From Limnothrix sp. BL-A-16 (GTDB lineage: Bacteria > Cyanobacteriota > Cyanobacteriia > CACIAM-69d), in contig CP166615.1 in assembly GCA_041937175.2 (NCBI GenBank), positions 1,568,001-1,632,000 on the forward strand: a DNA stretch of 64,000 nt, written 5' to 3'. Below, piece by piece: positions 17,508 to 56,703 of the stretch; the stretch's first letter is position 1, and every line of letters starts with the position of its first letter. A program made the position numbers and the translations under genes. The notes under the pieces are model-generated. The model had not been told where the DNA came from and ran no database searches. It saw nothing but the letters and a program-made list of their open reading frames with translations.

Positions 17508-17653
17508 AGAGGATGTCTGAGAAGTATCTTTTGGCCTGTGCCAAACACCAATAGTTGTGGGCAATAGTTGTGGGGGCAAGGGGCTTAAGCCCCTTGTCTA
17601 CGTCGATCACTGGAGCGTACAGAGTAGCAATTTTGGCTTTTCAGACATCTTCT
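17508..17653. mobile_element. MITE-like element family B
   Basis: AGAGGATGTCTGAGAA...TTTTCAGACATCTTCT terminal IRs; palindrome at 17577-17596; closely matches 56566-56703. Confidence 0.75.
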
Positions 17654-24929: not shown

Positions 24930-25219
24930 TGAGGTGATCAGCACAATCAGCCATGATTGAGCCTTCCAGCGCAAACAATCGCGTTCTGCTTAGAAAACAG
25001 CCGAAAACCTCTCTTATTTGCTTCCTGAGAGGTTGATTTCATTCTCTAGTAATAGATTCATCACAGGTTTAATTTTTGTTTCGCCTTTAAAGCAAATCTC
25101 AAAAAATCATTTTCAAAATTCACTTTTTCTAGATTTCTCCAACCGCAATCAGTAAAATCGTTTACCATGATTTGCGTGATCCATTCATCCATGCACGGGT
25201 CACAAAGGAGTAAGGCGAG

Positions 25220-25882: not shown

Positions 25883-25944
25883 AGCGGCTTGATTGTTTCT
25901 GTTTTGTTCCTTGCACACCAGATCGCAAAGTTGAGTTTTGGGTT

Positions 25945-28347: not shown

Positions 28348-28359
28348 TAATCCAGCCAC

Positions 28360-29814
28360 ATGGAACTACAACCCAAACCTACCGCCGCCCTCTGCTTGCC
28401 AGAATCTGAGATTTCAGCACTGTTGCAAGGGCGAATGCTGGCGATGTTGTCCGCCACGTTCATCAAGCCCCAGCGCATGTTGGCGCTTCAGCCGATTCCC
28501 GATCGCCTCAATCCCCGATCGCACGATCGCCCCTACCGATTCGCAGATTTGGGTTCCGAGAGCCTTCCCCCCGCCATCCGGGCGATCGTCACCTGTGTGG
28601 AATGCCAAATTATTGACGACTTGGCGGCCGTCGATGCGATCGCCGCCCTCACCATTTGGTCTGAGGATTTCCTCGCCCGTTCGATCGCCACCAAAGGACA
28701 CTTATTCCTAGCCACCGTCCGTGCTTTTCGACTGGTCACCCCCCACCCCCTAGAGCACGATTTTGAAGACCTCAGCGCGATCGGAAAATGCGTGGTGATG
28801 CCCCGTCCCTTCACGGGCGAAAATCCTGAGCCGGTGCTGCCGGAAGCGGTGTTTAAACGGCGATCGCAACAACTGCGCGATCAACAACCGCCCGAACATT
28901 CAGAACTTGAAGCTCTGCAATCCGCCCTTGCTGATTTAGCCAACACACTGCCCAGCGCCACACAATTAGACAACCGCATCCAAGCCTTTTTGGGGTGGCG
29001 CGTGCCAGGGCGATCGTCCCGTCTCAGTCCCTGGATGAGCAAAATTTCTAAAGTCGGTGCATCCAGCGAAGGCAACGAATTCGAGCGGCTGGTGCGCCAA
29101 GCCATGATTTCCTTAGGATTTTCTAACCGCAATCAAAATCCCAAAGCTAGCCTTGATCCCGATAGTGTCGGCGGCGCAGGCGGTCTAGATTTTGTTTGTG
29201 AATCGCCCTATTTAATCATCGGTGAGTGTAAATCAAGCAGCCGCGATACGCTACCCGATGGGGTGTTTTCGCAGCTTATGAAACTTGGTAACAAATATCT
29301 CAATCCTGAAGACTATGAACAAGCCATAAAATTAGTTATTTCTGTTGGCAAACCCAACCACCATGCTCAAAAAACAGCCCAAGGCAACCGTATGAATTTG
29401 ATTAAGCCCACCACCCTAGAACGCTTGGTTAAGCTCAATGTTTCCTATCCTGGTTCGTTGAATTTATGGGAGCTAGAAAATTGCCTAAAAAATCCGCCCT
29501 ATGCTCAAGAAGCTGATGACCAAATCAATGATTTTATAGATGAAAAAATTGAACAATTGCGAATCCGTGCATTTTTGATTGATTGCCTAAAACGACTAAC
29601 AAGTAACAATCAAAATAAAGGAGCTAGCACAGTCGAGCTTCACGCAGTCTATATCACCTCCCAGCCCCCCAAATTGCTGGAAATGGAAGACCTGCACAGC
29701 GTGGCGATCGAACTGGCTTCCCCACTCACCGGTTATCTAAGTCGCGAAAAGGGTCGTGAGTGGCGGGACGATCGCTTCTTTTGGTTGCGCGACTTGGCGA
29801 TCGAGAAAATCTAG
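28360..29814 (+). CDS. DUF1802-like N-terminal domain fused to a PD-(D/E)xK restriction-endonuclease-like domain
   Basis: ALLQGR...LTIWS.DFL N-terminus; FERLVR..M.SLGF...GGLDF...IGECK. Confidence 0.7.
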   Translation: MELQPKPTAALCLPESEISALLQGRMLAMLSATFIKPQRMLALQPIPDRLNPRSHDRPYRFADLGSESLPPAIRAIVTCVECQIIDDLAAVDAIAALTIWSEDFLARSIATKGHLFLATVRAFRLVTPHPLEHDFEDLSAIGKCVVMPRPFTGENPEPVLPEAVFKRRSQQLRDQQPPEHSELEALQSALADLANTLPSATQLDNRIQAFLGWRVPGRSSRLSPWMSKISKVGASSEGNEFERLVRQAMISLGFSNRNQNPKASLDPDSVGGAGGLDFVCESPYLIIGECKSSSRDTLPDGVFSQLMKLGNKYLNPEDYEQAIKLVISVGKPNHHAQKTAQGNRMNLIKPTTLERLVKLNVSYPGSLNLWELENCLKNPPYAQEADDQINDFIDEKIEQLRIRAFLIDCLKRLTSNNQNKGASTVELHAVYITSQPPKLLEMEDLHSVAIELASPLTGYLSREKGREWRDDRFFWLRDLAIEKI

Positions 29815-29832
29815 GCGATTCCTTTTCAGTCC

Positions 29833-31899
29833 TCATTCTCGGGCTGCTTCAATGCAGGTTTCCCGATCTTTCTGTAAATTGGGCTTGCCTTCCCGTTCTC
29901 GCCCAACAGAAAATCGCGTTTCAATATAGGGCAACTCGATCGTAAAACAACTGCCCACAGTCACCTCACTGGTCACCCCCACACGACCACCGTGAAGTTC
30001 AACAATCCGCTTCACCAGAGCCAAGCCCAGACCCGTCCCCTCATATTTACGATTGAGGGCACTGTCAATTTGCACAAACGGCTGAAAAAGACGCTTAATA
30101 TCCTCTGGTGCAATCCCAATACCCGTATCAGTGATTGAAATTCGCACAAAATATTTTTGTAATTCTCCATTTTTTTCCGCCTCATTCTCGCCCTCTTTCT
30201 TTTGGCAAGTCACTTCTAGGGTGATGCGTCCGCCTTCCGGCGTAAATTTAAAGGCATTATTGAGCAAATTCAACAAAACTTGGCGGATACGACGTTCATC
30301 GATATATAAATCTGGCAAATTAGGCGATAGATTAACTTCCAGTTGAATATTTTTTTGCTCGGCTTGGGGCTGAATGAATGTCAAGCTTGATGTGCAAAGC
30401 GGCCCGATCGCAACGGTCGTGCAATTTAGCTCCAAAAACTCCGATTCGATCTTGGCAATATCCAAAATATCGTTAATTAAATCCAGAAGATGTGCGCCGC
30501 TTTTTTCAATATTCTCTAGTGCTTTGTATTGCTGCTTATTAACACTGCCAAAGATACCCTCTTGCAAAATCTCCGCCACTCCCAAAATTGTGTTTAAGGG
30601 AGTGCGGAGTTCGTGGCTCATGGTTGCCAAAAAATTGTCTTTCAGTCGATTTGACTGCGTGAGTTGACTATTGGCTTTTTGTAACCTTTGCAGAAGGCTC
30701 TGTTGTTGATTTACCATGCTGAAAAAGACATCGGATAAATGGCTAATTTCATCCTGTGAATGGTTGGCGTTTTCATGATTCCCGATCATGCGATCGCAAA
30801 CATCTAAAATGGGTTGCAAACGGCGATTTAAAAATCGAATGAATAACCAAACAACCAGCAACAACAGAAATGCTGCAATGATCGTGGCGCTGATAGCTCC
30901 CAATAGGGCAGGTTTGGCAATAGCCTCGTAAGGAATAGCCTCCAGCATCACCCATTGAGTTCTGGGAACTGTTTGATAAACCCAATAAATCGAATCAGAT
31001 TCAAAATGTGATTTTTCAATGCCTTGATTGATTCGGTAAAGAATTTGTTCCCAAACAGGTTTTAGGGACGGAATGGATGAAACATTAGCCAATTGGGCAG
31101 CCTTACGAGGATCAAGAGAATAGCTCAAGAGTTGCCCATTTTTTGTGATTAGAGCATAATAGCCATTGTTATTGAACGAAAGATCATCTTGACTTAAATT
31201 AAGATCGCCAGCATCAATGTCTTTATTAAGATCATCAATATTAATATCTCCGTTCATTACAGCAATTAGCTGACCTTTTTGATTGCGAATCGTTCCTGAA
31301 AAGGTCATGAGTGGAATGGGATAATTATCATTCATATAAGGCTTTGACCAAAGGTAGCGATCAGCCTTAACCGCGTCTCTGAAGTATTGCAGTTTTGGAT
31401 ACTGATCGACTTCCCATAGATCAACCAATGTAAATCTAGGATCTTGAGTAAGAGTAACCCCGCGATCGGGAATAGATTCTTCAACATAGGGGCCAAACCA
31501 CTCGCGATCGACCAAGCCCTTGGGGAACTGCATCACCCCAAATCCGGTGATCAGTTTAGGACGAGCTGACATAAATGAAAGCACTAATTTCTCGTAGGCC
31601 TCGGGCGATCGCACACCACTATCGTGTAAGAAAATCGTTGCGGAAACCAAACTTTTTAAAAAAGTTTCACCACTGAGCAGCTCCGCATCGAGATGCCGAA
31701 CCTTATTATCCGTTTCCGAAGTTAGTTGCAAAATCCGAACGGATTTCAGCTCACTATAAAATAAATACCCTAAGCTGCCGAGACCAATGGAGGCGGCAGA
31801 AATCACCGCCACAAACAAGCGAGTGCCGATCGAACGAAGTCCAAATTTCATTGATTTAGCCGGAACAGTTAGACCGTTTTGGGTTGAATGGCTTGTCAT
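29833..31899 (-). CDS. Membrane sensor histidine kinase with Cache-like periplasmic domain
   Basis: Two TM segments, MSHELRTPLN, NLLNNAFKFT, DTGIGI, GTGLGL. Confidence 0.92.
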   Translation of the reverse strand: MTSHSTQNGLTVPAKSMKFGLRSIGTRLFVAVISAASIGLGSLGYLFYSELKSVRILQLTSETDNKVRHLDAELLSGETFLKSLVSATIFLHDSGVRSPEAYEKLVLSFMSARPKLITGFGVMQFPKGLVDREWFGPYVEESIPDRGVTLTQDPRFTLVDLWEVDQYPKLQYFRDAVKADRYLWSKPYMNDNYPIPLMTFSGTIRNQKGQLIAVMNGDINIDDLNKDIDAGDLNLSQDDLSFNNNGYYALITKNGQLLSYSLDPRKAAQLANVSSIPSLKPVWEQILYRINQGIEKSHFESDSIYWVYQTVPRTQWVMLEAIPYEAIAKPALLGAISATIIAAFLLLLVVWLFIRFLNRRLQPILDVCDRMIGNHENANHSQDEISHLSDVFFSMVNQQQSLLQRLQKANSQLTQSNRLKDNFLATMSHELRTPLNTILGVAEILQEGIFGSVNKQQYKALENIEKSGAHLLDLINDILDIAKIESEFLELNCTTVAIGPLCTSSLTFIQPQAEQKNIQLEVNLSPNLPDLYIDERRIRQVLLNLLNNAFKFTPEGGRITLEVTCQKKEGENEAEKNGELQKYFVRISITDTGIGIAPEDIKRLFQPFVQIDSALNRKYEGTGLGLALVKRIVELHGGRVGVTSEVTVGSCFTIELPYIETRFSVGREREGKPNLQKDRETCIEAARE

Positions 31900-32261
31900 T
31901 GCTTAGCCCAGTAGCCTCAGTGGCGGACTGTTCAAAGTATAAAGAAGCACCTCTTTAACTAAAGAAAACCTAGTCTGAAACGCTGGCTCAAGCATGTGGC
32001 AAAATCACGAGGTATAAAAACATAATTGAATCCTAAATTTATGGATGCCAAATTTTTAAATTCGACTGAGAAAGATACAACAAATCTAACAGGAGTTAAT
32101 ATTTTTGCCCACGATCAATTAACTGTTGAATGACCTAATCAACAGCTCATCGGCAGCCCGCCCTTGGTCGCCCGACCAATACCCACAGCCCTCGTCCGCT
32201 GACGCTGGACAGCGGATTCATTCTGGGGTGTTTCGTGTCATGCTTTTCCGACCGTTCCCGC

Positions 32262-32501
32262 TCAGCCCTCGTCCTCAGCGTCTTTAGGAGCCAGCTCCCC
32301 GATCGCCCGGCCCAAATAGGCCTCAACAAAAGCCCGCGCCGCCTTTGGGTTCAACTGCTCTAGGGCATCCACGATCGATGGAATCGATTCCGCTGTTGGG
32401 TCGCGCGTTTCTGCGAACCAATGGCTAATAGTGGCGCGATTGATGCCCATCGCCACCGCTAAGCGATTTTGGGCGATGTTGTATTGCTGCAACCGAATCA
32501 T
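32262..32501 (-). CDS. XRE-family HTH protein, possibly 5'-truncated
   Basis: IAQNRLAVAMGINRATISHW HTH; abuts the island edge. Confidence 0.6.
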   Translation of the reverse strand: MIRLQQYNIAQNRLAVAMGINRATISHWFAETRDPTAESIPSIVDALEQLNPKAARAFVEAYLGRAIGELAPKDAEDEG

Positions 32502-32609
32502 CCTCGTGGGTCAAAGCGAGTGGGTCGATCGCTTGGTCAAGAGCCGCTACGTAACTGGTGTTTAGCATTATTGTTTTGAAGCTCTCGATTTTTGTACTGC
32601 TGGTGCTTA

Positions 32610-33059
32610 TCAATTAGCTTGCTCTTCTTGAAATGGGCTTGCATACCACTGTAAGTACCATTGTTCTGGATCCTCATCACTGGAACAGTCTTCATACTTT
32701 GGAATATGAATCTGGTAAGAATCATGAAAAGACAAGTGAAGACTGTTGTCTTCCAAAAATTCGTACCCTGTAAATATGCTTTGATTTAACGGATGAAATA
32801 GATTGCACCACTCTTGAAATCTTAGTCTGTAGTCAATATCTTCATAATGTGGGCACAAGTAGGCATCTGCAATCAGTTCTCCATTCTGCATAAATGACCA
32901 AGGTGGGTCAATCCAAATGTAACCTTGCCTTTTTAATTTGTCTTTTTTTTCAAATCTGATTTTGATGGAATTACACGCAATTGAATGGTGACAAGTCTTT
33001 CCAATAAAACCTCTCAAAATCGGTTCATACTTTTGTCGATCACTAGTGATATGGCCCAA
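32610..33059 (-). CDS. Hypothetical protein (cassette E cargo)
   Basis: 149 aa, AT-rich, TTG start with GAGGTGG upstream, follows attI-like copy 3. Confidence 0.6.
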   Translation of the reverse strand: MGHITSDRQKYEPILRGFIGKTCHHSIACNSIKIRFEKKDKLKRQGYIWIDPPWSFMQNGELIADAYLCPHYEDIDYRLRFQEWCNLFHPLNQSIFTGYEFLEDNSLHLSFHDSYQIHIPKYEDCSSDEDPEQWYLQWYASPFQEEQAN

Positions 33060-33175
33060 TTTTCCACCTCATTCTCAATACTACAGATGTGCTTTCAACC
33101 TTTAAGCTGAAAGCTATTAACCTTGATCGCTGACAAAGAGTCTATCAAACAAGTTTATAACCTCTTTCTGAAGCA

Positions 33176-33310
33176 GGACAACTATTGATTAAATGATTAG
33201 ATTGCAGTTGCTTGAAAACTCTTTCAGCAGAGTGTTGTTCAGCAGTGGCAAAACAATGTCATCAATTATCATACTTTTGTTGTAACGATCGCCCTGGAAG
33301 CGTCACAGCC
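33176..33310 (-). other. attI-like platform copy 3 (diverged)
   Basis: + strand GGACAAC-TATTGATTAAATGATTAGATTGCAGTTGC...CTCTTTCAGCAGAGTGTT aligns with 33696 and 40307; identity ends at AAC. Confidence 0.65.
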
Positions 33311-33375
33311 CTAACCCAACAGCGCGATCGCCTGTTTCACCAGGTTCTCCGCCGTCAGACCGTTGAGGCCCATCA
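33311..33375 (-). pseudogene. Phosphoketolase 3'-end fragment 3 (65 bp, includes stop)
   Basis: Encodes MGLNGLTAENLVKQAIALLG*, matching the end of 40473..42680. Confidence 0.9.
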
Positions 33376-33678
33376 AACGTCTTCATCGTAGGCTCTCGCA
33401 ATCGCGGTGTCGAAACGGCTGGCAAACTCGCAGAACTCCTGCCCCCAACCACTGCTCACACTGACCTCCTGGATTGGGCCGGTGGGAAGAAACAAAAGCT
33501 CAATGTCGGAACGCTTGGGTATGTCGCCAGACTCAATGCGAGAAACAATGCTGTCAATCTCTCGAAGTGCTGCCGGTGCATCCTTCCATGAAGACCAATC
33601 AAAGTTGTTGTCGGGCCGCGAGAGGAACTGGCGCGCCTCTCGGAGAACCTCAACCAACTGTTGGTGCTTGGAATTCAT
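33373..33678 (-). CDS. Hypothetical protein (cassette D cargo)
   Basis: 101 aa; ATG about 20 bp after the GTTAGGT core; its TGA overlaps phosphoketolase fragment 3. Confidence 0.7.
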   Translation of the reverse strand: MNSKHQQLVEVLREARQFLSRPDNNFDWSSWKDAPAALREIDSIVSRIESGDIPKRSDIELLFLPTGPIQEVSVSSGWGQEFCEFASRFDTAIARAYDEDV

Positions 33679-33695
33679 AGAGACGTGCGGATGAC

Positions 33696-33861
33696 ACCTA
33701 ACTATTTATTAGATCGCAGCTGCGGGATGACTCTTTCAGCAGAGCGTTGTCAAGCAGTTGCAGTGTAACTTCAGTATGAAGGGTATTATCCCGCAGTTGC
33801 GAGATAATACCCCCACTTATAGAACTTCTATCGCAACGATCGCCCTGGAAGCGTCACAGCC
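33696..33861 (-). other. attI-like platform copy 2
   Basis: Minus strand ...TCTAATAAATAGTTAGGT; collinear with 40307-40472; includes palindrome 33781-33812 and TTGACA at 33748-33753. Confidence 0.8.
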
Positions 33862-34014
33862 CTAGCCCAATGGCGCGATCGCCCGTTTCACCAGATTCTC
33901 CGCCGTCAGACCATTGAGGCCCATCAGTTGGCCAGCGGTGGCCGTCGTTTCGCCGCGCTTCCAGGCGAACAGATCGCGCGGGGCCGTGCTACGGAGGGCG
34001 ATCGGCTCCAGCAT
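33862..34014 (-). pseudogene. Phosphoketolase 3'-end fragment 2 (about 153 bp, includes stop)
   Basis: Encodes MLEPIALRSTAPRDLFAWKRGETT...RAIAPLG*. Confidence 0.92.
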
Positions 34015-34018
34015 GGTG

Positions 34019-34753
34019 TTAGTCGTCGCCATCACGTTCAATCTCACGCTCAATAATCTCTTTGACAAACTCAGGCAGTTCCTTCTCAACACTGACAGCC
34101 CTTTGCTTGAGCCTTTCATAAATCTCAGTGTCATCTCCTTCCCAAAGCAGATCTATTCTTCTGATCTGCCGCATTGCAATATGCTCATAGCTTTCTGGAT
34201 AAGCCCAGTAGCAAGATAGACAAATAGATTTATCCTTAATGCTGTTCCAGTTTTCGCAATGTTCGCATGACCACGACTTGGCCCGGTTAGCTGAGCCACA
34301 AAGTAACATGAAATTTTCTGGGACTAGATCCGGCTCACCAGCAACTTCAAAAGGGACACGATGATCAATTTGTAATTCGCGTTGATTAACCTCTTCAAGA
34401 TAAATAAAGCACCTACATCCATATCTGCTAATCAGTGCCTCTTTAATCTGCTTGGATAAACCTGTTCTGCCAGAAAGGCGAGTGAATCTTGTCTTGCTAA
34501 TATCTCCAAGTCGATATGCAGCTATTTTTCTGCCATCGCTTCCAGTAACACGAAAAGTTTCTAATGGGATACCACTTTCTCTAACATCTCTAGCTGCTCT
34601 TGGAGGATGGTTATAACCGTAAGTTTCTTTTAATTCCTCAGTTGTAATAAATCCGTGTTGCAAGATGTGGTCAATGACTGCTTTCGGTCTCTTTGCTGTT
34701 ACAGAACGGCAAAGTTCCAGGAAGTCATCGGGTAGCTGCTGTGAATTCTCCAT
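34019..34753 (-). CDS. HNH endonuclease, probable restriction enzyme (cassette C)
   Basis: LQIDHRVP...NFMLL...NRAK, CEHC and CLSC; TAA lies within the inverse core GACTAAC. Confidence 0.82.
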   Translation of the reverse strand: MENSQQLPDDFLELCRSVTAKRPKAVIDHILQHGFITTEELKETYGYNHPPRAARDVRESGIPLETFRVTGSDGRKIAAYRLGDISKTRFTRLSGRTGLSKQIKEALISRYGCRCFIYLEEVNQRELQIDHRVPFEVAGEPDLVPENFMLLCGSANRAKSWSCEHCENWNSIKDKSICLSCYWAYPESYEHIAMRQIRRIDLLWEGDDTEIYERLKQRAVSVEKELPEFVKEIIEREIERDGDD

Positions 34754-35672
34754 GTGTTTCCAAAAGGGTTAGCTGCTTTGGTTGTTGGTCAATATAGCTA
34801 AAATCATAAATTTTAGTGTTCATTAATTTTTTGGATAAACTTGGCGACAAGTACAGCGACTCAATTGTATTTTCCGATTTGCCTAGTAAGGTAGACTGTG
34901 AAGATCTGCCAACTTCGATTTCGATTCTTTCAAGATTTAAGCTATTAGGGAGAAATTTGCCAAACGCCTTATCACCTAATTTTCCGTCATAACTGATAGC
35001 AAATACAGATCCTTTTTGATTTAAGCATTCAAGCGCTAACACAAATTCATCGAAGTCTATCCCAGACAAATATCTTGAATCTCTATTGCCGCATACACCT
35101 TGATATGGAGGATCCATATAGATAAAATCACCTTCTTGAATTTGCTCTAATACCTCTCGGTAATCCAAATTAGTAAATTTACATTTGCTTTTGAGCAAAC
35201 TAGAAACACCGATTATATTTTTTCTCATTGTTTCGGGTCGTGTTCCTTTGCGTCTTTTGTCCGGACTTTGGTTAAACAATCCTTCAGAATTGTAGCGAAC
35301 CGAACCTTTAACGCACCTTGCTAGTAGATAAAGAAGTAGTTTTGGATCGTTGGTCTCATTGAATTTTGATCTGACTTCAAAGTAATGGTCTACAGAATTG
35401 GGGTGTTGTTTATTCCATAGCTCTAAGTAAAAATCGGCTATTTCGTCTGGTTTTTCTACAGCTAGTTCTAGGAGCTTGATGAGCGGATGGTTCAGATCGT
35501 TTAACCAAAAACTCTGGGTGATTTGACTTGCGGACGTAGCAACACTAATTGCAGCAGTTCCAGCAAAAGGCTCTACTAGCCTCTTGAATTTTTTTGGAAA
35601 GAACTGGAGGATGTGCTTTGCTAGCTTCCTTTTGCTGCCTTGATATTGAATGAAGTGGGGTAGGTTTGCCAT
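34725..35672 (-). CDS. D12-class (Dam-like) N6-adenine DNA methyltransferase (cassette C)
   Basis: YQGSK, EPFAGTAA, YMDPPY. Confidence 0.9.
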   Translation of the reverse strand: MANLPHFIQYQGSKRKLAKHILQFFPKKFKRLVEPFAGTAAISVATSASQITQSFWLNDLNHPLIKLLELAVEKPDEIADFYLELWNKQHPNSVDHYFEVRSKFNETNDPKLLLYLLARCVKGSVRYNSEGLFNQSPDKRRKGTRPETMRKNIIGVSSLLKSKCKFTNLDYREVLEQIQEGDFIYMDPPYQGVCGNRDSRYLSGIDFDEFVLALECLNQKGSVFAISYDGKLGDKAFGKFLPNSLNLERIEIEVGRSSQSTLLGKSENTIESLYLSPSLSKKLMNTKIYDFSYIDQQPKQLTLLETHGEFTAATR

Positions 35673-35782
35673 CGTTATACAAGGACAAATGATCTTACAG
35701 CGGCTGATTAGGATAGTTCGAGCTTATCGCTTAATTCAAGCATTTTTTCAAGGGCGATCGAAGGGGTGAGGCTGGAGTCTAA

Positions 35783-35810
35783 GACGACTAACGATTCATT
35801 CGGCTGCAAT
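35783..35810 (-). other. Distal half of an attC site; start of cassette C
   Basis: Minus strand GCAGCCGAATGAATC-GTTAGTCGTC; the last 10 nt are the reverse complement of the cassette end at 34018-34027. Confidence 0.65.
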
Positions 35811-36019
35811 GATCGCCCGTTGAACCAGGTTCTCAGCCGTCAGACCGTTGAGGCCCATCAGTTGGCCAGTGGTGGCTGTCGTTTCGCCGCGCTTCCAGGC
35901 AAACACATCGCGTGGGGCCGTGCTGCGGAGAACGATCGGCTCCAGCATCGCACTCGTGCCGCCGGTCACGCCCAACAACGCATCACCGCCGAAGAGCCGA
36001 TCGAACGTTGTGCATCATC
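35811..36019 (-). pseudogene. Phosphoketolase 3'-end fragment 1 (about 209 bp, no stop)
   Basis: Encodes TFDRLFGGDALLGVTGGTSAMLEP...ENLVQRAI; ends within a HIP1 site (GCGATC). Confidence 0.92.
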
Positions 36020-36075
36020 CACAGCAAGATAACGGTGTTAGCCTGTCTCAACCAATAGTTTAGTAGAGCAATCCA

Positions 36076-36900
36076 TTAATCTCTTTCCTCATCCTGAAGC
36101 TCTTTTTCGTCTATCTCAACTAGCTCATCAACTACCGAATCTAAAGAAGGTTGATCATCTTCTGAAGGCAATCTGTATTTAGATAAAAAACTCTGAAGCT
36201 TAGGATGCGGTATCCTTTTTAGCTTTCCAAAATTTGTATCCTCGTTAAAATCCTTACCTTCAGATTCCTTGCGACCATATGAATTTGTGTCTAAAGGTAA
36301 ACCTTTTCTGAGTTTTTCTTTCCCGATTTTGCTTAAAACCGTTGGCGTTTCATAATTTCCAAACCATCTTCCACCACGATCAGTCATACGTTTATCTCGT
36401 GCTTCAACAAGCTCAATCATAGAAAAAAGTTCGAGATCAATAATTTGGGGAACTGCTGCATCTGAGTTCAGATCATCTACCTCCATTCGATATGCTATGA
36501 GCAGCATTGCGTCTAACTCCGGATCGACATTTTTGACAGTTACTTTCTGAGTAAGTCGGGCTGATGGCTCTCGTGGTGTAGGCGGCTTTTTCATTTTAAG
36601 ACCAGGATTATCTACATAAAGAAGCTTTAGCTCCAACCTCTTGCCAGATTCATGTTTGTAATCTGGATATCCTTCTCTTTCTCCCAAAATACCTTCATGC
36701 TTTTCAAGCCCAAGTCCTTTTATATCCAAATGAGGAATGAGTGCATCCATCAAGGCACCTACAATTGTGCCTACTTGAGATGGTTCAAATGCGGTAATTG
36801 CTACTATCGGCAGACTTAAGCTCCGAAATTGTTGTCCTATCAAAGGCTTAAGTTGCTCTTTTAGCTTATCCAAGTCATGGTTCGATATGCGACCACTCAT
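36076..36900 (-). CDS. Putative PD-(D/E)xK restriction endonuclease (cassette B)
   Basis: GYPDY...RLELK; ATGA-coupled to the upstream HTH gene; next to an MTase. Confidence 0.62.
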   Translation of the reverse strand: MSGRISNHDLDKLKEQLKPLIGQQFRSLSLPIVAITAFEPSQVGTIVGALMDALIPHLDIKGLGLEKHEGILGEREGYPDYKHESGKRLELKLLYVDNPGLKMKKPPTPREPSARLTQKVTVKNVDPELDAMLLIAYRMEVDDLNSDAAVPQIIDLELFSMIELVEARDKRMTDRGGRWFGNYETPTVLSKIGKEKLRKGLPLDTNSYGRKESEGKDFNEDTNFGKLKRIPHPKLQSFLSKYRLPSEDDQPSLDSVVDELVEIDEKELQDEERD

Positions 36901-37157
36901 GTCTCTTTCTCTTCCTTCTGAATTTTTTGTTTTATTTCAGAAGGGAGGACATCTTCTAGATAAAGACCTAAGGCAGCACACCATTTAGCTGCTTCAATTA
37001 CATCAAGCCGTCTTTCACAGGTTTCTACCTTGGAGACCAAGGTTTGCTCTTTACCCAATCTTTCCCCCAACTGTTGCTGAGAAAGATTTTGTCTCTTACG
37101 AGCACGACGAAGGCGAGCAATAAACTCAATGTAGAGAGGGTCACGAGCACCCGACAT
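36897..37157 (-). CDS. XRE-family HTH regulator, controller-protein-like (cassette B)
   Basis: LRRAR...LSQQQLGERLGKEQTLVSKVETCERRLDV. Confidence 0.85.
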   Translation of the reverse strand: MSGARDPLYIEFIARLRRARKRQNLSQQQLGERLGKEQTLVSKVETCERRLDVIEAAKWCAALGLYLEDVLPSEIKQKIQKEEKET

Positions 37158-37330
37158 AAGGCAGCAAGTATGCGAATTTAGGGTACAAGTTGAAGGTAGA
37201 GGATGCCATCCATTCCTGACCTAAATCGTGCATCTCCTTAGCAAATACCCCAAAAACGCATATTTATAGTTTCCCGACCATCGTCTTGACAAATGATCAA
37301 CCCTGCGCGATACTTCGGTTGACTAAAGGA

Positions 37331-38629
37331 ATGAGTATGGCTAAACGACATCAAAATCAACAAGGCAACCTCGAATCGCTGTTTCTTCGCATGGAAGAAC
37401 TTGTTCTTGCAAATTCTGGTGAGGACGAGTTTGAGGAGGTGTTTAAGTTGCTTGTAGCAAAGCTTTGGGATGAACGAAGCCAACAATCTAAATTTTATCG
37501 ATATAGCACTGATGAAGCTACCTTTGAAGCAATAGCCAAACTCATGAGAGAAGCGGAAAAAAAATGGTCGGGAGTTCTCAATGAAGTCACATCCAAACTT
37601 ACGCCTGAGCATCTTTCAATCTGTGTAGATGCTCTTTCAAAACATAACATCTCTAATGAAAGTCTTGATGTTATTGATAGTTTCTTTGAATTTATAGTAT
37701 CCAAGTCGGCAAAGGGAGCTAAAGGTCAATACTTTACTCCAAGGCATGTAGTTGAACTATGTGTAAGAATTTTAAAACCTTCTTCAGGTGAGACAATTCT
37801 TGATCCGGCTTGCGGATCGGGCGGATTTCTCCTCCACGCATTGAAATTTATTAAACAACATGAAAAGTTAGATAGTGGAGGAGAAATTCAAGGCTTTTGT
37901 AGTGAAAAATTATGGGGTTTTGATATTGATGCCAAAGCCACACGAGTTGCTAAGGCTTTAATGATACTTGCAGGAGATGGGAGTAGTAACATTGTCAGGC
38001 TTAATAGCTTATTGAAGCCTGAAATGATTGGGCTTTTTAGAAACACAGAAGAGCCGAATCTTACTATAGAGGATGTATGTCGAAGTCGAATTAAACGTCA
38101 CAAAGGTTTCGACGTTATCCTTACAAATCCTCCCTTTGCTGGTGAGATTAGAGAAAATAGCTTTCTCAATTGTTATAACCTTGCAAATAAAAAATCTCGA
38201 ATTGAAAGGGATATATTATTTGTTGAGAGATGCCTTGAGCTATTAAGACCTGGAGGGCGATTAGCTATAGTCTTGCCTCATAATAAGTTTGCCGGAAAAT
38301 CATTTGAGTTTCTACGACAATGGATTTTGAGGAAAGCAAGAATTCTTGCTGTCATAGGTTTAGGAAGAAATACTTTTATGCCTCATACTCATCAAAAAGC
38401 CAGTATTCTAATATTGAAAAAGCAATCTCCTGGGAAGAGTATCCCGTCAGATTATAATATCTTTTTTGCGATTAGTGAAAAAGATGGCAAGAACTCTAAG
38501 GGGCAGTTTGTTCTGCATGAATCTGTTGCGAGATTAGAAAATACTTGGGAAGATATAGATCATGACTTCTCAGAAATAGTTGAAGGCTTTGAGACATTCT
38601 TAAAACAGGAAAATATTGATTTCGAGTAA
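37331..38629 (+). CDS. HsdM-like N6-adenine DNA methyltransferase (cassette B)
   Basis: GQYFTPR, DPACGSGGFL, TNPPF. Confidence 0.9.
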   Translation: MSMAKRHQNQQGNLESLFLRMEELVLANSGEDEFEEVFKLLVAKLWDERSQQSKFYRYSTDEATFEAIAKLMREAEKKWSGVLNEVTSKLTPEHLSICVDALSKHNISNESLDVIDSFFEFIVSKSAKGAKGQYFTPRHVVELCVRILKPSSGETILDPACGSGGFLLHALKFIKQHEKLDSGGEIQGFCSEKLWGFDIDAKATRVAKALMILAGDGSSNIVRLNSLLKPEMIGLFRNTEEPNLTIEDVCRSRIKRHKGFDVILTNPPFAGEIRENSFLNCYNLANKKSRIERDILFVERCLELLRPGGRLAIVLPHNKFAGKSFEFLRQWILRKARILAVIGLGRNTFMPHTHQKASILILKKQSPGKSIPSDYNIFFAISEKDGKNSKGQFVLHESVARLENTWEDIDHDFSEIVEGFETFLKQENIDFE

Positions 38630-38634
38630 CAAAT

Positions 38635-39294
38635 ATGGCTTTGATTTCGATTCAGTCAAAAACTCGTCTTGTGTCACCAGTAATTCTTGCTCCCGAAAGA
38701 TACGATCCAAGACGGAAAATCAAGACGCAAGAAAACGAAGTAGTTGAGCTAGGTGAAATCGTTATTTCCGTAAAGAAGATGGTTAAATCCTCTGTTAATC
38801 TTGGAAAATGTTTTGTTCTTGATACTTCTGACGCTCGAGAAGGCATTGTAATTGCCAGAAAGCAATCGCTGCAAGGCACTGAAATTGGTAGCACCAAGAA
38901 GGAGGTCAAATCTGGGGATGTTATTATCTCACGTCTTAGACCATATCTACGACAAGTAGCATTTATTGATGAAGAGATACCTAATGCTAATGGTACTCAG
39001 ATTCTTTGCTCTACGGAATTCTTTGTCTTACGCTCAATTGATAATCTATCGATAGCATTTTTGGTACCTTTTTTACTTTCAAACGCAATTCAGGAAGTAC
39101 TCGCAGCATCCCAAGAAGGTGGGCATTATCCTAGATTTATCGAATCGGCTCTTCTAACACTTCCTATACCCAAAAGCCTCTTATCCCAACGCTCACTGAT
39201 CTCTGAAGTTGTCAGAAATAGTGTTCAAATGTACAGAGCTTCTGAGAAATCGATGTCAAACATGGTCGAAAAGATTAACGCTACGCTGTCTTAA
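38635..39294 (+). CDS. HsdS-like half-size specificity subunit, single TRD (cassette B)
   Basis: GDVIISRLRPYL, CSTEFFVLR, YPR...LPIP. Confidence 0.75.
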   Translation: MALISIQSKTRLVSPVILAPERYDPRRKIKTQENEVVELGEIVISVKKMVKSSVNLGKCFVLDTSDAREGIVIARKQSLQGTEIGSTKKEVKSGDVIISRLRPYLRQVAFIDEEIPNANGTQILCSTEFFVLRSIDNLSIAFLVPFLLSNAIQEVLAASQEGGHYPRFIESALLTLPIPKSLLSQRSLISEVVRNSVQMYRASEKSMSNMVEKINATLS

Positions 39295-39350
39295 GATTTT
39301 TCTCATGAAATTTTAGATTTGCGGAGGGCAGCAAGACCTAGACTTTTGCA

Positions 39351-39436
39351 GGCTAACGTTCCTGGTCAGCGGTTGCCGATACCTTGTCCACTCCACAAGC
39401 AACTTGGGGCAATCCGCTGCACCAGGGTTGTTGTGC
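39351..39436 (-). other. Integron attC recombination site (86 bp)
   Basis: Minus strand GCACAAC-AACCCT-GGT(G)CAGC-GG(A)TTGCC...GGCAACC-GCTGACC-AGGAAC-GTTAGCC: R''/L''/L'/R' layout with two unpaired bases, 11 bp after an ORF stop. Confidence 0.88.
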
Positions 39437-39447
39437 TGCGTGCTGAA

Positions 39448-40212
39448 CTATTCATTATTTACTTTAGGTTCTGAAGGTTTTGGTTCTCGCAACTTATTCT
39501 TAACTTGATTGTTAGAATTATTTAGAAAATCAGATTCTATACCAGCAGAACTCCTTTCAATCAGGTTTGTAATAAGCTTATCCATAAGTTGTAGGTTTTT
39601 CTCTGGATCTTTAACTTGCTTACAAAGCTCAACAGCTAGCATTGTGTCTTGAATTCTAGTCAGTTGCTTATAGAATCGATTAGATTGCTCAACTGTCCGG
39701 TTATAAAGAACAAAGTTAGCACCTCCTATGAATTGAAGAATTATTCCAGAAATGCCAGATATAATCGACAACTCAAGCTTTTGTCCTTCTTTAATAAAAG
39801 GTAGCAATATTGCTATAACTACAGTAATAAATCCTAAAAATATGACTAATGCGCTGAAGCTAAAGCTACGTCTTGCTTGATTTTTGTTAATTGTATAGTA
39901 CTCGGTAATCTGATTTAAATTTAACCTTATAACATCTACAACACTATCTTCTCTTTCAATTCTTTCAATAATCTTTTCTCTTTCTTGCTTTATTGCTTTT
40001 ACTTCGATTGTTTCTGAGATTGCTGATTTGGATAAACTAAAAGGATTATTGGACAGGAGAAAAAACACAACAATTACAGTAAGAGGCAGTGTAGGAATAC
40101 CCAGGAAATTCCCAACCCACGCGACTAGAGCCGCCGTTATGAAATTAGCGGGGATCTCAGTCATCATTACTTGTGTCCATGCTTCTTTAAAGCTACTGGC
40201 TCTTTTTCTCAT
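39448..40212 (-). CDS. Membrane protein resembling the cyanobacterial TRADD-N-associated 2TM domain (cassette A)
   Basis: EYY...NQARRSF followed by two TM helices; AT-rich. Confidence 0.6.
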   Translation of the reverse strand: MRKRASSFKEAWTQVMMTEIPANFITAALVAWVGNFLGIPTLPLTVIVVFFLLSNNPFSLSKSAISETIEVKAIKQEREKIIERIEREDSVVDVIRLNLNQITEYYTINKNQARRSFSFSALVIFLGFITVVIAILLPFIKEGQKLELSIISGISGIILQFIGGANFVLYNRTVEQSNRFYKQLTRIQDTMLAVELCKQVKDPEKNLQLMDKLITNLIERSSAGIESDFLNNSNNQVKNKLREPKPSEPKVNNE

Positions 40213-40306
40213 AATGAATTTCCGTAGGCGTTGTATTTGGGAAAAGTTGCTAATACCTTAGCAAAAGAGCATAGCTTTTGATACTCCCCCAACCAATAAC
40301 TCAGCA

Positions 40307-40472
40307 GCACAACTATGTATTAGACCGCAAGTGCAGGATAACTCCTTCAGCAGAGTGTTATCAAGCAGCTACAGTCTAACTCCAGTCCAAAGGGTACTAC
40401 CCCGCAGTTGCAGGATAATACCCCCACCTATAGAACTTCTACCGCAACGATCGCCCTGGAATCGTCACAGCC
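40307..40472 (-). other. attI-like platform copy 1
   Basis: Minus strand TCTAATACATAGTTGTGC, compared with attI1 CCTAAAACAAAGTT; GTTGTGCTGC is the reverse complement of the attC R'' region at 39430-39439. Confidence 0.8.
40335..40364 (-). promoter_or_regulatory. Candidate Pc-like cassette promoter
   Basis: TTGATA-18 bp-TATCCT pointing at the crossover; copy 2 has TTGACA at the same place but a poor -10. Confidence 0.35.
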
Positions 40473-42680
40473 CTAACCCAACAGCGCGATCGCCCGTTTC
40501 ACCAGGTTCTCCGCCGTCAGACCGTTCAGGCCCATCAGTTGGCCAGCGGTCGCCGTCGTTTCGCCGCGCTTCCAGGCAAACACATCGCGCGGAGCCGTGC
40601 TGCGCAGGACGATCGGCTCCAGCATCGCACTCGTACCGCCGGTCACACCCAACAATGCATCACCACCAAAGAGCCGATCGAACGTCGCATCATCAATAAA
40701 GTGAGCATCCGGCTCCGAGCACATCTCCACCGCCACATCGGTCGATCGGTAGAGGCGACGGGGGCTAATCACCGACACGATCCGCGAACCGATCCCCTGG
40801 GCCGCCAACTGTTCGGCGGCCGCCAGCGCCGGGGTCAAGGTCATGTCACCAATCACCGCCAAGACCACGGTTTTTTCGCCGGGCGTTTCTTGCAACACAA
40901 AGCCGCCGTCCTGCAAGGCTTGGCGCGTTTGCTCAAAGGTCGAGACGATCGGCAGCGGCGACTTGCTGACCGTAATCGTGATCCCCTTGTTCACTTGCGC
41001 CAGCGCCCAGTCATAGCAAGCCTGGGTGCTGTTCGCATCGCAGGGGAACAGCGGGAAGATGTTGCCGTTGCGCATCATCGCCGCGAAGTAGTTTTCGATT
41101 TCCGGGCGTTGGTGCGTCCAGCCGTTGCGGCCCTGCTCCAGCGCACCCGCCGTGAACAGGCAGACCGTGGCGGGCGTGGGGCGGCGCAACTCGGCCATGG
41201 CTTGGGTGACGGTTTGCCAAATCGGCAGACCGTTGATCGCGAACGACTCGTAGGAACACCAGAGCGATCGCGCCCCAAACAGGGCTTGCCCCACCGCCAA
41301 CCCGGCGCAGGCATCCTCGTTCAGGGGTTCATACACCTGACCATCGGGCTGTTGGAAATAGATGGGGTCGGTGGTCGGGTGAACGATTTTCAGGCCCACA
41401 TTGATGTTGTTGATCCCCGAGGCGGCGTTGCCGTCGGCGTTGGTGACGATGAAGTCGCGATCGGCTTGACCCACTTGCACCACCACATCGCCCATGGCCG
41501 TGGTCGAAACCTTCTTTTCGCCGGCCGGGAATTCCACCAGGTTCAGCTTGCCCAAATCCGCTAGGGGCCGCACCTTTTCGGTCACGGCCACCTGAGCCGC
41601 CGGGCCACCGCCCGATCGCTCAAAGTTCGTCCGCACCAGTTGCCAAGCCTCCGGCGACAGGGCCCGCTCCTTCAGGGCCGCCACAATGTAGTCCCGCTCC
41701 AGGTTGTCGCCGGGATAGAGGTTGTGGGACTGAGCACCGCGCTTGTGTACGCCCGCGCCCTTCAGTTGCTTGATGATCAACACCGTCAGCTTGCCGCCCA
41801 AGGCCAGTTTCGCCGCCTGGTCGGTGGCTTCCAGCACTGCCTGGGCAAACACCAATCGCTGGGCAAAGGAAAACTGGGTGCTATCGACGTAATCGCCCGG
41901 TTGGTTGGCATCGTCGAAGTCCTTGGCATCCAGCAGCACCACTTCTTCAAAGCCATTGCCGCGCCAGTAGGCTTCCATGGCGGCGTTGGATTTGGTGGAG
42001 ACCATGCTGTGGTGCTCTTGGCTGTAGCCGTTCCAAATCAGAATCGGCAGGAAGTTGGTGGCCTGCGGATAGGCGGTGTTGAAGTGGCCAAAGCTGCTCA
42101 TGATGTAGGGTTCGCCCAGGCCGCCATCCCCGATCGTCACGGGGAAGAGGGTTCCGGGGAACAGCTTGGCCCCGGCCATGGCAAAGTGCTGACCCTGGCC
42201 GAGGGGGCCGGCGGGGGCCAGCAGGCCGGGAATTTGCCCCGACAGGTGGCCGAGCAGGCCGTGGGTTTCGCGGAATCGATCGCGCAATTGCTGCACCGTC
42301 GTGATGCCCATGGCTTCGAGCGATCGATCCAAGAACACCTGGGAATAGAAACCGGGGGCGTGGTGGCCCACTTCGGTGGTGAAGTTCTTGTAACCGAGCA
42401 TGATCAGCGCCGCCATCACATCGGCAGAGCTGGCATAGCCGCCGGGGTGGCCCGATTCCTTGCTGGCGGTCATCTGCACGATCAGGTAACGCAGGGCATC
42501 GGCCGCCAGGAGAGTTTGGAAGGCCGCCGCTCGATCGCTCGGGCTGGCGATCGCCCCTGTGGTCGCATCCACGGCTGGCGCAGCACCCAGGATGTCAAAT
42601 TCGGGCCAAGGCGCACCGAAGTATTGAATGCCGTCGCAAAACGCAGGCGTGGTCGTGGGTGCGGGGGTTGTGGCGGTCAT
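40473..42680 (-). CDS. Phosphoketolase family protein (ThDP-dependent)
   Basis: SGHPGG, GHHAPG, GPLGQG, GDG...N ThDP motif, GRNGWTHQRP. Confidence 0.88.
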   Translation of the reverse strand: MTATTPAPTTTPAFCDGIQYFGAPWPEFDILGAAPAVDATTGAIASPSDRAAAFQTLLAADALRYLIVQMTASKESGHPGGYASSADVMAALIMLGYKNFTTEVGHHAPGFYSQVFLDRSLEAMGITTVQQLRDRFRETHGLLGHLSGQIPGLLAPAGPLGQGQHFAMAGAKLFPGTLFPVTIGDGGLGEPYIMSSFGHFNTAYPQATNFLPILIWNGYSQEHHSMVSTKSNAAMEAYWRGNGFEEVVLLDAKDFDDANQPGDYVDSTQFSFAQRLVFAQAVLEATDQAAKLALGGKLTVLIIKQLKGAGVHKRGAQSHNLYPGDNLERDYIVAALKERALSPEAWQLVRTNFERSGGGPAAQVAVTEKVRPLADLGKLNLVEFPAGEKKVSTTAMGDVVVQVGQADRDFIVTNADGNAASGINNINVGLKIVHPTTDPIYFQQPDGQVYEPLNEDACAGLAVGQALFGARSLWCSYESFAINGLPIWQTVTQAMAELRRPTPATVCLFTAGALEQGRNGWTHQRPEIENYFAAMMRNGNIFPLFPCDANSTQACYDWALAQVNKGITITVSKSPLPIVSTFEQTRQALQDGGFVLQETPGEKTVVLAVIGDMTLTPALAAAEQLAAQGIGSRIVSVISPRRLYRSTDVAVEMCSEPDAHFIDDATFDRLFGGDALLGVTGGTSAMLEPIVLRSTAPRDVFAWKRGETTATAGQLMGLNGLTAENLVKRAIALLG

Positions 42681-42962
42681 GGGCAATTCACCTAGTGGTT
42701 CGACTCTCTCGACTGTAAGGCCAGTCTTGAGGCGATATTTTACAACCTTGATGTTGCTAAAGTCTCAGGACGATCAACTCAGGACGATCGAAACCGGCCC
42801 CTTAACGACCCGTTGTACTGGGGGCTGGACGATCAGCAGGCGATCGATTGTGGCAGTCTCTCGCTAAATTTGCCGCCCTAGTCCAGACCCAAAACGCCAC
42901 GCCCTAACCCATCAACCCTGTTGATAGACTGGGGGCAATTCCCCGATCGAAACTGGTCGCCT

Positions 42963-43508
42963 ATGTTGACCCTGGCGCAATGGACCGTGGCGGAATATCA
43001 CCAAATGATCGCGGCGGGCCTGCTGGTCGATCGCCGCGTGGAACTGTTGAACGGGCAAATTATTGAAATGTCACCGGAAGGGCCGGAGCATACCTATCGC
43101 GGCGAAACCCTGGCGGAGTGGCTGCGCGATCGCCTGCGGGGGCGAGCCTATGTGCGGGAAGCGCGACCGATTACCCTAGACCATTCGGAACCGGAGCCAG
43201 ATATTGCCGTGGTGCGGGGCGATCGATCCCAATTTGTCCAACGACATCCCGGCGCGGCGGATCTGTTTTGGGTGGTGGAAATTGCCCGATCGACCCTAGC
43301 CACAGACCTGACCCACAAGCGGGATCTCTACGCGCGGGTGGGAATTCCGGAATATTGGGTGGTGGATTTGGTGAATCGGCGGGTGGTGGTGTTTCGGCAA
43401 CCGGAAGCGGGCCGCTACAGCCAAGCGGAAACGGTGAGCGATCGCCCGATCGCGCCGCTGGCTTTCCCGGACTGTGCGATCGACCTGACCCAGCTCTTTC
43501 AACCGTAG
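42963..43508 (+). CDS. Uma2 family endonuclease, copy 1
   Basis: RVELLNG.I.EMSP, PEPD, VEIA, YAR.GIPEYW. Confidence 0.92.
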   Translation: MLTLAQWTVAEYHQMIAAGLLVDRRVELLNGQIIEMSPEGPEHTYRGETLAEWLRDRLRGRAYVREARPITLDHSEPEPDIAVVRGDRSQFVQRHPGAADLFWVVEIARSTLATDLTHKRDLYARVGIPEYWVVDLVNRRVVVFRQPEAGRYSQAETVSDRPIAPLAFPDCAIDLTQLFQP

Positions 43509-43540: not shown

Positions 43541-44086
43541 ATGTTGACCCTGGCGCAATGGACTGTGGCGGAATATCACCAAATGATTGCGGCGGGCCTG
43601 TTGGTCGATCGCCGCGTGGAACTGTTGAACGGGCAAATTATTGAAATGTCACCGGAAGGGCCAGAACACCGCTACCAATGCAGCAGTTTGGGCGATCGGC
43701 TGCGGGTGCTGTTGCGCGATCAGGCTTGGATTAGTGAGGCACACCCGATTACGCTGGATGACTCGGAACCGGAGCCGGATTTGGCCATTGTTCGGTTGCC
43801 TCGATCGGCCTTTCGCGATCGCCACCCGGGGCCAGCGGATCTGTTTTGGGTGATTGAAATTGCTCGATCGACCCTCACCACAGACCTGACCCACAAGCGG
43901 GATCTCTACGCGCGGGTGGGAATTCCGGAATATTGGGTGGTGGATTTGGTGAACCGGCGGGTGGTGGTGTTTCGGCAACCGGAAGCGGGCCGCTACAGCC
44001 AAGCGGAAACGGTGAGCGATCGCCCGATCGCGCCGCTGGCCTTCCCGGACTGTGCGATCGACCTGGCCCAGCTCTTTCAACCGTAG
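43541..44086 (+). CDS. Uma2 family endonuclease, copy 2
   Basis: Same motifs and the same 546-nt length as copy 1. Confidence 0.92.
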   Translation: MLTLAQWTVAEYHQMIAAGLLVDRRVELLNGQIIEMSPEGPEHRYQCSSLGDRLRVLLRDQAWISEAHPITLDDSEPEPDLAIVRLPRSAFRDRHPGPADLFWVIEIARSTLTTDLTHKRDLYARVGIPEYWVVDLVNRRVVVFRQPEAGRYSQAETVSDRPIAPLAFPDCAIDLAQLFQP

Positions 44087-56565: not shown

Positions 56566-56703
56566 AGAGGATGTCTGAGAAGTATCTTGCAGTACGGGCT
56601 AAAGGTTAATTGTCGTGGGGGGCAAGGGGCTTAAGCCCCTTGTCTACATCGATCGCTGGGGCGTACAGAGTAGCAATTTTGGTTTTTCAGACATCCATCC
56701 TCT
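56566..56703. mobile_element. MITE-like element family B
   Basis: AGAGGATGTCTGAGAA...TTTTCAGACATCC(ATCC)TCT; matches 17508-17653. Confidence 0.75.

Follow-up and report, generated by a model that had tools for sequence, protein, structure and literature searches.

The window analysed here is a 64,000-nt stretch of Limnothrix sp. BL-A-16 (assembly GCA_041937175.2, contig CP166615.1, positions 1,568,001 to 1,632,000 of the forward strand; positions below are counted from its first letter), and our subject is three short sites within it at which, according to an initial annotation, mutual homology stops exactly at the G/TT crossover point of integron integrases. We found that each site is the outer end of a non-coding element of about 135 nt, here called D, downstream of a phosphoketolase/transketolase-like (XFP-like) gene. 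The best overall explanation, and one that we consider likely, is that the sites are the crossover ends of copies of an integron attI platform which have no integrase gene (intI). It is highly probable, judging from its sequence and surroundings, that D itself is a relic attI platform, and sequence comparison gives good support to the view that the sites are what remains of attI ends in a degenerate chromosomal platform, which would now mark a hotspot for defence-gene cargo.

All three strings named by the initial annotation were found where it had placed them, at 40307-40313 (junction 1, with D beginning at 40314), 33696-33702 (junction 2, D from 33703; the minus-strand cassette side reads GTTAGGT) and 33176-33182 (junction 3, D from 33183). 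The agreement on the platform side is far longer than the approximately 20 nt quoted there: copy 2 (33700-33999) is 88% identical to copy 1 (40311-40610) across 300 nt, and the homology of copy 3 to copy 1 covers about 170 nt, with an 8-nt insertion and a deletion of about 39 nt. Strong homology ends at AAC and a core-site-like motif runs 7-12 nt further, so the claim that the copies are unrelated beyond AAC holds for the flanks left of AAC apart from this short motif, of which AGCAG[C/G]ACAAC is common to copies 1 and 3. An alignment of 15 copies gave the same picture, with a common left terminus …AAC/TAT.TATTAGACCGCA… (the slash marks the junction) and flanks that are unrelated beyond the short motif. 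Across 32 D copies from several genomes the junction consensus is GCCTAAC/TAT. The information content is 1.7-1.9 bits at -1 to -3 (AAC), 0.6-1.0 bits at -4 to -7 and at -9/-10, and about 0 past -13; the columns 'AC' and +1 to +16 are inflated, because 20 of the 32 copies were retrieved with a pattern which fixes them. The variable side averages GCCTAAC/, whose reverse complement, G/TTAGGC, is the canonical integron core site (consensus G/TTRRRY). At junction 1 the cassette-side core occupies 40303-40313 (+ strand, AGCAGCACAAC; reverse complement GTTGTGCTGCT), and the putative crossover lies at 40312/40313. Minus-strand open reading frames (ORFs) start 95, 24 and 123 nt past junctions 1, 2 and 3 (39448-40212, 33373-33678 and 32610-33059, respectively). 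A different ORF thus does follow each site, as had been noted, though the stretch with the 101-aa ORF past junction 2 is not AT-rich.

A covariance model of D (R1) found D1 (40314-40448, + strand) with 154.5 bits (E = 4.9e-29), D2 (33703-33837, +) with 145.3 bits (E = 4.2e-27) and D3 (33183-33286, +), a decayed copy with the insertion mentioned above and a module of about 39 nt lost, with 27 bits (E = 0.016). With such scores the repeat cannot be due to chance. The pairwise identity of the three is 61-84%, D2 being 84% identical to D1. Compared with the relatives that we refer to as G001 and G002, D2 is 95% identical to its ortholog in G001, and D1 just 88-89% identical to the D1 of G001 and G002. 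The end of D1 forms a simple site, in which TTAGAC is inverted against the junction core; read towards the cargo it is …GGTCTAA-N7-G/TTRRRY. Further inside, D1 has nnTAAC boxes which end at +29, +67 and +106, a spacing of roughly 38-39 nt, and D contains imperfect palindromes of 61 nt and 32 nt, whose cells are paired in 86% of cases vs 33-45% after one arm has been slid. A promoter-like sequence, TTGATA-18-TATCCT, is predicted on the minus strand of D1 at 40364-40335, facing the cargo, and in other genera its first box is TTGACA; we infer that D includes a cargo-facing promoter, TTGA(C/T)A-18-TATCCT. The two ends of D (TATGTATTAGACC… and …TACCGCAAC) do not form an inverted repeat, and the element has no flanking duplication. 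Rfam at the gathering threshold gave no match in the whole window, and D had no blastn match against plasmids.

What relates D to integrons is its position in other cyanobacteria, where its immediate neighbour is an intI gene, or a 5' fragment of one, that lies downstream of D and is divergent from it. We examined 31 D copies in 30 loci, and in 13 of them residue 1 of IntI is found at +103 or at +141 to +150 from the junction, with the frame pointing away. The motif search near cyanobacterial intI genes that the initial annotation had proposed thus places the intI start 103-150 nt from the junction in these copies. The same arrangement occurs in 4 of 36 metagenome loci, which brings the IntI-linked D copies to 17; D and the region upstream of these intI genes are one and the same element. 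In locus L084 intI is full length (TIGR02249, 461 bits with a cut-off of 265, profile positions 1-315 of 315), and its product shares 59% identity with the integrase annotated in a Kovacikia plasmid integron and 52% with IntI1 and IntI3. The Kovacikia integron has GAAGCCAGCTAAC/ at its junction, with the cassette-side motif seen in several D copies, and its first cassette is an m5C methyltransferase (MTase). In L057 a classical 87-nt attC (GCCTAAC…GTTAGGC) follows the first gene past D. Ending at G/TTRRRY upstream of intI, D appears by its sequence to be an attI site. Three facts speak for this reading: the adjacency to divergent intI genes, the G/TTRRRY consensus on the variable side of the junction, and the change of cargo exactly at this point between relatives and in contigs of other strains. 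We also noted that in L084 the first small ORF past D is followed, at 1600-1660 on the minus strand, by CTGAAGCCAGAGAAC, the inverse of the cassette-start motif, and then by a transposase-like ORF; this may be an insertion sequence (IS) inserted into an attC.

How similar is D to the best known site of this type, attI1? In a class 1 integron (L101) the platform also lies upstream of and divergent from intI, and the cassette junction is 133 nt from the intI1 ATG, compared with 141-150 nt for D. The terminal simple site CTAA-N7-TTAG around G/TT is present in both. The terminal bases of the two, AAC/TTTGTTTTAG in L101 and AAC/TATGTATTAG in D1, agree at 11 of 13 positions, the very figure that the initial annotation gave for copy 1 and attI1. 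Both also have nnTAAC boxes on the intI side, at +26 to +32, +45 to +51 and +70 to +76 in L101 and at +23 to +29, +61 to +67 and +100 to +106 in D1; the repeated boxes of attI1 we take to be accessory binding sites of IntI1. Unlike attI1, however, D is built of palindromic modules of about 39 nt and its internal sequence is unrelated. The locus in our window differs further from the intI1-attI1 platform in having no intI, several copies of the site, and cargo without a detected attC.

D is carried by 4 of the 8 genomes of the window's family, the four genomes of genus g2 being without it, and the covariance model detected it in 7 of 151 sampled genomes of the class (5 of 81 genera). A scan of 185,579 species genomes with a 17-base terminal motif returned 46 loci; 31 of them are of cyanobacterial type with a full or shortened D, and 15 are chance matches in unrelated bacteria. 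Records with D come from Spirulina, Spirulinaceae, Geitlerinema, Phormidium, Microcoleus, Okeania and Limnothrix-type organisms, and most copies are single within ±4 kb. According to the model this genome has at least 6 matches at 4 loci, and G001 and G007, a relative from another genus, have 5 each. The further copies elsewhere in this genome had been overlooked by the initial annotation. Two of them (3430811-3430966 and 3434375-3434495 of contig C1; L034) form a second D-marked array 1.8 Mb away, beside a MacB/FtsX permease gene, where the cargo comprises SUKH-1 immunity, DUF6331 and methyltransferase genes and where the distal D is truncated, accompanied by a duplicated piece from upstream of MacB and 3.4 kb from the full D. 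Five metagenome contigs (L114, L122, L132, L137 and L142) have another element with the same terminus, TCTAAC/TATATATTAGACCGCAAATT.CGATTTTTGTTAGATTATTTGTATAATCCG, which may be a second family of attI-like platforms.

The anchor of the array is the XFP-like gene itself (40473-42686, minus strand, 737 aa; Pfam XFP 2.5e-11, XFP_N 3.6e-08), and G001, G002 and G007 likewise have an XFP ortholog with D behind it. The intact gene adjoins D1 across a spacer at 40449-40472, D2 bears 153 nt of the XFP 3' end and D3 65 nt. Fragment 2, with its spacer, spans 33838-34014 (minus strand) and corresponds to 40473-40625 with 91.5% identity to the gene; fragment 3, likewise with a spacer, lies at 33287-33375 (minus) and corresponds to 40473-40537, with 52 of 54 positions identical. 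A further piece, fragment 4 (35808-36023, minus), which had escaped the initial annotation, is 92% identical to the equivalent 40488-40697, has no D and is cut within a HIP1 site, GCGATCGC. It is followed by a short linker at 36024-36035 which is common to this genome and G001 (minus strand …CCG/TTATCTTGC), with differing cargo to its right. The order is therefore XFP-D1, cargo A, fragment 4, cargo B, fragment 2-D2, cargo C, fragment 3-D3 and a 149-aa ORF. The starts of the fragments vary (equivalents of 40537, 40625 and 40697), and the D end is constant; as for a secondary crossover at GTT at the fragment starts, AAC is present at the break in fragment 3 only. With 61-84% identity, and each lying within a duplicated piece of the XFP 3' end, the copies are three tandem paralogues rather than the allelic sites proposed earlier. 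The fragments share 89-96% identity with XFP genes from within this genus and 78-82% with those from the other one, and from these values and the identities of D it follows that the copies are old or come from congeners and are not recent duplications. Could the spacer next to D1 be what is left of the first codons of intI? It may be, since 40449-40472 can be aligned collinearly with the start of intI in L043 (26 of 37 positions), but shuffled sequences reach a similar score (9-11 vs 8 ± 1.4), so that the resemblance is not significant.

At these junctions the cargo is strain specific. In all four genomes with an XFP-linked D the first gene at the junction differs: a TRADD-TM gene here, SMEK_N in G001, Roadblock/LC7 in G002 and an N6_N4 methylase-like gene in G007. 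The cargo at the MacB-linked D likewise differs between the two genomes which have it, this one and G001. These two are otherwise syntenic at about 94% identity, and their homology starts at 40303; between 40303 and 36035 the cargo is different, 4.27 kb here vs 1.47 kb in G001, in which an SMEK_N gene replaces cargo A between the same two breakpoints. Breakpoints in other strains and metagenomes were read from the contigs of four runs. Contigs of other strains break at 40312, 33698 and 36034; one from run X11 spans 32423-36034 and continues from 36034 with a third, different sequence, and one from X13 joins 33958 to 35934, leaving a single XFP fragment and no cargo B. Relatives and other strains therefore differ or break at the junction, and the breakpoints are not scattered, which the initial annotation had named as an outcome that would speak against its proposal. 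Apart from one bin with depth 2 in X13, positions 36121-40241 are uncovered in the contigs of the four runs, a gap which is not evidence by itself. Two joints, 33979 to 40645 in X1 and 36034 to 40435 in X13, were not used as clean deletions, since the sequence between their ends is not known.

A number of results weigh against an attI origin of the sites or do not agree with a working integron. None of the 8 genomes of the family has an integron integrase above the TIGR02249 cut-off, the best match in this genome reaching 57 bits, and its only PF00589 gene encodes a Xer-like tyrosine recombinase. Even where D is linked to intI the gene is rarely intact: among the 17 linked copies one intI is full length, one encodes 251 residues and the rest 26-148 N-terminal residues, so the 'canonical' D-intI arrangement rests on few intact examples. 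Our own crude attC detector, which recovers the attC of L057 and which weak sites could escape, gave no match in the window array; elsewhere, in 65 kb of cargo linked to D in other cyanobacteria, it gave 6 matches vs 3 in shuffled sequence, so that attC is not evidently enriched near D. Fragment 4 and the second copy at the MacB locus do not end at G/TT. The covariation in the hairpins is not above shuffles, 22-26 of 500 of which reach the observed value, and promoter-like sites are not enriched in the region (17 vs 13.9 ± 3.7). Besides, no recombinase, integrase or relic was found by Pfam among the ORFs in 25-46 kb, and the recombinase search in this genome gave one weak resolvase-domain match and one Y1 transposase, both far from the locus. 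The only places in the window array with the extended core motif are junctions 1 and 3. When five D-bearing genomes were queried directly, N-terminal intI pieces alone were obtained.

These results also decide against several known categories. The locus is not a complete integron, as this genome has neither intI nor cassettes bounded by attC, and it is not a CALIN, which needs at least 2 attC sites. An integrative island at the 3' end of a gene does not agree with the lack of a recombinase in 25-46 kb and with the varying fragment starts (40537, 40625, 40697), and a diversity-generating retroelement does not agree with the absence of a reverse transcriptase among the ORFs scanned or with the share of substitutions at A (6 of 18 and 5 of 13). 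Single-stranded folding of D is not claimed, since the pairing is good but the covariation is not above shuffles. Finally, the proposal of the initial annotation that three independent IntI-catalysed cassette insertions took place here is not supported: there is no intI in the genome or the family, the far ends of the cargo yielded no attC, and at least one cargo, the MTase and restriction endonuclease (REase) pair, is joined elsewhere, within the HIP1 site at the equivalent of 40488. Beside this point stands an observation on HIP1 itself. The HIP1 site GCGATCGC lies at 40485-40492, in the last codons of the XFP gene, and the fragment before cargo B in this genome and G001 (window position 35808) ends at the same HIP1 base (…GGGCGATC/) as the XFP fragment of G002 (L027, ~8896); the cargo beyond this end is not the same, being an MTase/REase pair in the former and a toxin-antitoxin-like Gp49/HTH pair in G002. 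It looks like a second fixed junction, one which is not G/TT.

How, then, could intI-less attI platforms have come to be repeated beside the XFP gene? In related cyanobacterial integrons D would be the intergenic module between intI and the first cassette. In the Limnothrix-like lineage a deletion may have removed the integrase gene and joined the platform to the conserved XFP-like gene at its 3' end. Different accessory genes would have been put at the same nucleotide by IntI-type recombination at G/TT, in ancestors or in donor strains, and homology would stop at the junction for that reason. The three tandem copies probably arose later, as segments consisting of an XFP 3' fragment, D and cargo from diverged congeners integrated beside the intact gene. 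The simplest route would be homologous recombination of the Campbell type, in which the incoming circular DNA has an XFP fragment and cargo, either with D or without it. Each new cargo would land beside the intact gene and push older copies outward, and each event would leave an XFP fragment whose start depends on that of the incoming piece. The order of the array is what successive single-crossover integrations would give. We see about an even chance that the array grew by homologous recombination in this way. An IntI-mediated attI x attI recombination predicts the same map, and we favour the homologous route because the family lacks IntI. For want of an integrase in this genome, the D sites are probably inactive today and their cargo is probably turned over by homologous exchange. 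Concerning the many incomplete intI genes, the simplest reading is that intI was lost repeatedly through deletions which spared the platform. Perhaps the platform was kept for its predicted cargo promoter.

An alternative is that the modules with attI are themselves the mobile cassettes, circles of cargo, flank fragment and D being formed and inserted by double-strand attI x attI recombination at G/TT, with IntI supplied in trans and without any attC. The G/TT end is common to the three window copies and to most of the others, no attC was detected in the window cargo, and tandem D copies with flank fragments occur both at another locus of this genome and on a Phormidium contig. There is a precedent as well, attI x attI being described for IntI1 in PMC7790495 (1.8e-4). 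However, 8 of 8 family genomes have no IntI, fragment 4 and the truncated copy at the MacB locus have other boundaries, and most D copies are single within ±4 kb. Homologous recombination, moreover, yields the same architecture, and with attI x attI, too, an illegitimate join is still needed for the first unit of cargo, fragment and D. We therefore consider this mechanism unlikely for the window. Its generalization, that in a group of filamentous cyanobacteria accessory modules carry a copy of attI and a scrap of whatever adjoined it in place of attC and are exchanged by double-strand attI x attI recombination, we hold to be likewise unlikely. If true, the 'ancestral' integron reaction would still be alive in these organisms, and this would explain the 5' stumps of intI beside D and the scarcity of attC around D.

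Three other origins of D have to be weighed. D could be a site borne by each cassette, an equivalent of attC, and no part of a platform. It is palindromic, dispersed and multi-copy, as the counts in this genome, G001 and G007 show, but 17 copies keep one distance and orientation relative to the start codon of intI, the array of L057 has a classical attC of a different sequence, and the core boxes of the palindrome are 'inside-out' (TTAGAC…GTCTAA compared with RYYYAAC…GTTRRRY in attC), which makes a cassette-borne D very unlikely. The tandem direct repeats of a gene 3' end around foreign cargo with low G+C recall genomic islands integrated at the XFP 3' end, each of which would have brought a replacement 3' end, with the integrase now lost. 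Such islands should have a fixed core inside the gene, the reverse of the variable fragment starts and constant D end that we see; D is also found away from XFP (at MacB, intI fragments and other genes), there is no integrase or relic in 25-46 kb, and we judge this origin highly improbable. Least of all can we credit that D is a non-autonomous transposable element, such as a miniature inverted-repeat transposable element (MITE) or an IS end, or a structured regulatory RNA or terminator, whose own end would be the sharp edge. The element is repeated, palindromic and of defined length, and the genome does have one Y1 transposase gene; yet the covariation is weak, Rfam has no match, and a MITE or IS end is rejected by the lack of terminal inverted repeats and of a target-site duplication. 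Neither the fixed adjacency to intI nor the core-site consensus on the variable side would be explained.

The relic attI platform that we prefer has a parallel in Xanthomonas, where degenerate chromosomal integrons with an inactivated intI lie at a fixed gene, ilvD. The similarity consists in an anchor which is one conserved housekeeping gene across genera, a lost or broken integrase and strain-specific cargo. The Xanthomonas integrons differ in that they keep attC sites and a single attI, whereas our locus repeats attI along with parts of the anchor gene and yielded no attC. To our knowledge, attI sites are known for just a handful of integron classes. Pseudogenes of intI are reported as frequent in PMC2426708. 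IntegronFinder, as defined in PMC4889954, recognises CALIN from at least 2 attC sites and In0 from intI; our locus resembles both in being a part of an integron without its partner components, but with neither an attC pair nor intI found it would be an 'attI-only' remnant. The same source states that attI cannot be searched for by software, as it is unknown for most integrons. In the papers that we saw on integrons in combination with cyanobacteria, attI, attC or attI x attI we found no description of D (supplements were not covered). Our reading would define a conserved attI platform for a set of cyanobacterial integrons, those of the 7 genomes and 5 genera given above, and it suggests that defence genes can turn over at hotspots marked by attI-only remnants even where current tools would score the genome as integron-free. 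Two features are left unexplained by the textbook cassette cycle, namely the tandem attI copies with pieces of a neighbour gene and the near-universal 5' stumps of intI.

The cargo between the platforms has a G+C content of 31-46%, compared with about 62% in the XFP gene. Cargo A (36036-40302, minus strand) consists, by Pfam, of a CyanoTRADD-associated protein with two transmembrane segments (39448-40212, -), a half-size specificity subunit (38635-39294, +), an N6 DNA methylase (37286-38629, +), a C-protein with a helix-turn-helix (HTH) domain (36897-37157, -) and a putative REase (36076-36900, -); PADLOC reported MTase_I (320 bits), Specificity_I, Control_protein and a weak REase_II. Cargo B (34015-35807, -) is a type II restriction-modification (R-M) pair with PADLOC MTase_II (220 bits) and REase_II (195 bits, profile 22-227 of 235), made up of a D12-class N6-adenine MTase (34725-35672, -) and an HNH-type REase (34019-34753, -). 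Cargo C (33373-33702, -) contains the 101-aa ORF at 33373-33678, for which no family was found and which is 94.5% conserved in G001; its stop codon sits at the joint with fragment 3. The 149-aa ORF, the first gene past junction 3 (32610-33059, -), also belongs to no family that we found and is 86% conserved in G001.

The ends of cargo B differ from those of the other two. It has perfect 10-bp terminal inverted repeats, GTTAGTCGTC and GACGACTAAC at 34018-34027 and 35780-35789, which are 3 and 18 nt from its two joints and are reached in 4 of 500 shuffles, and none were found for cargo A or cargo C. On both sides of cargo B, moreover, lies the same 138 nt of the XFP 3' end as a direct duplication (equivalent 40488-40625). 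Furuta, Kobayashi and colleagues (about 2010) reportedly described the insertion of R-M units with long target duplication in Helicobacter, and a complete R-M pair inside a 138-nt direct target duplication resembles this, although their description has no link with integron sites. The sequence GGTGTTAGYC is common to the XFP-distal ends of cargo A and cargo B.

Several observations concern the surroundings of the array. The 15 kb left of D1 (~25000-40300) have a low G+C content, 37-50% vs about 60%, and left of 32592 there is no counterpart in the syntenic contig of G001; the variable island, whose products include an AAA ATPase, a DUF1802 protein and a histidine kinase, therefore reaches well past the three D copies. 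Just upstream of XFP are two adjacent genes of the Uma2 family (putative restriction endonuclease-like) at 42921-43508 and 43541-44086, with 75% DNA identity. Further away, a repeat of about 100-140 nt with the hairpin GGGGCAAGGGGCTTAAGCCCCTTGTCT is present in three copies (15453-15543, 17508-17649 and 56566-56695), and a 137-nt unit is repeated in tandem at 56233-56506 with 99% identity.

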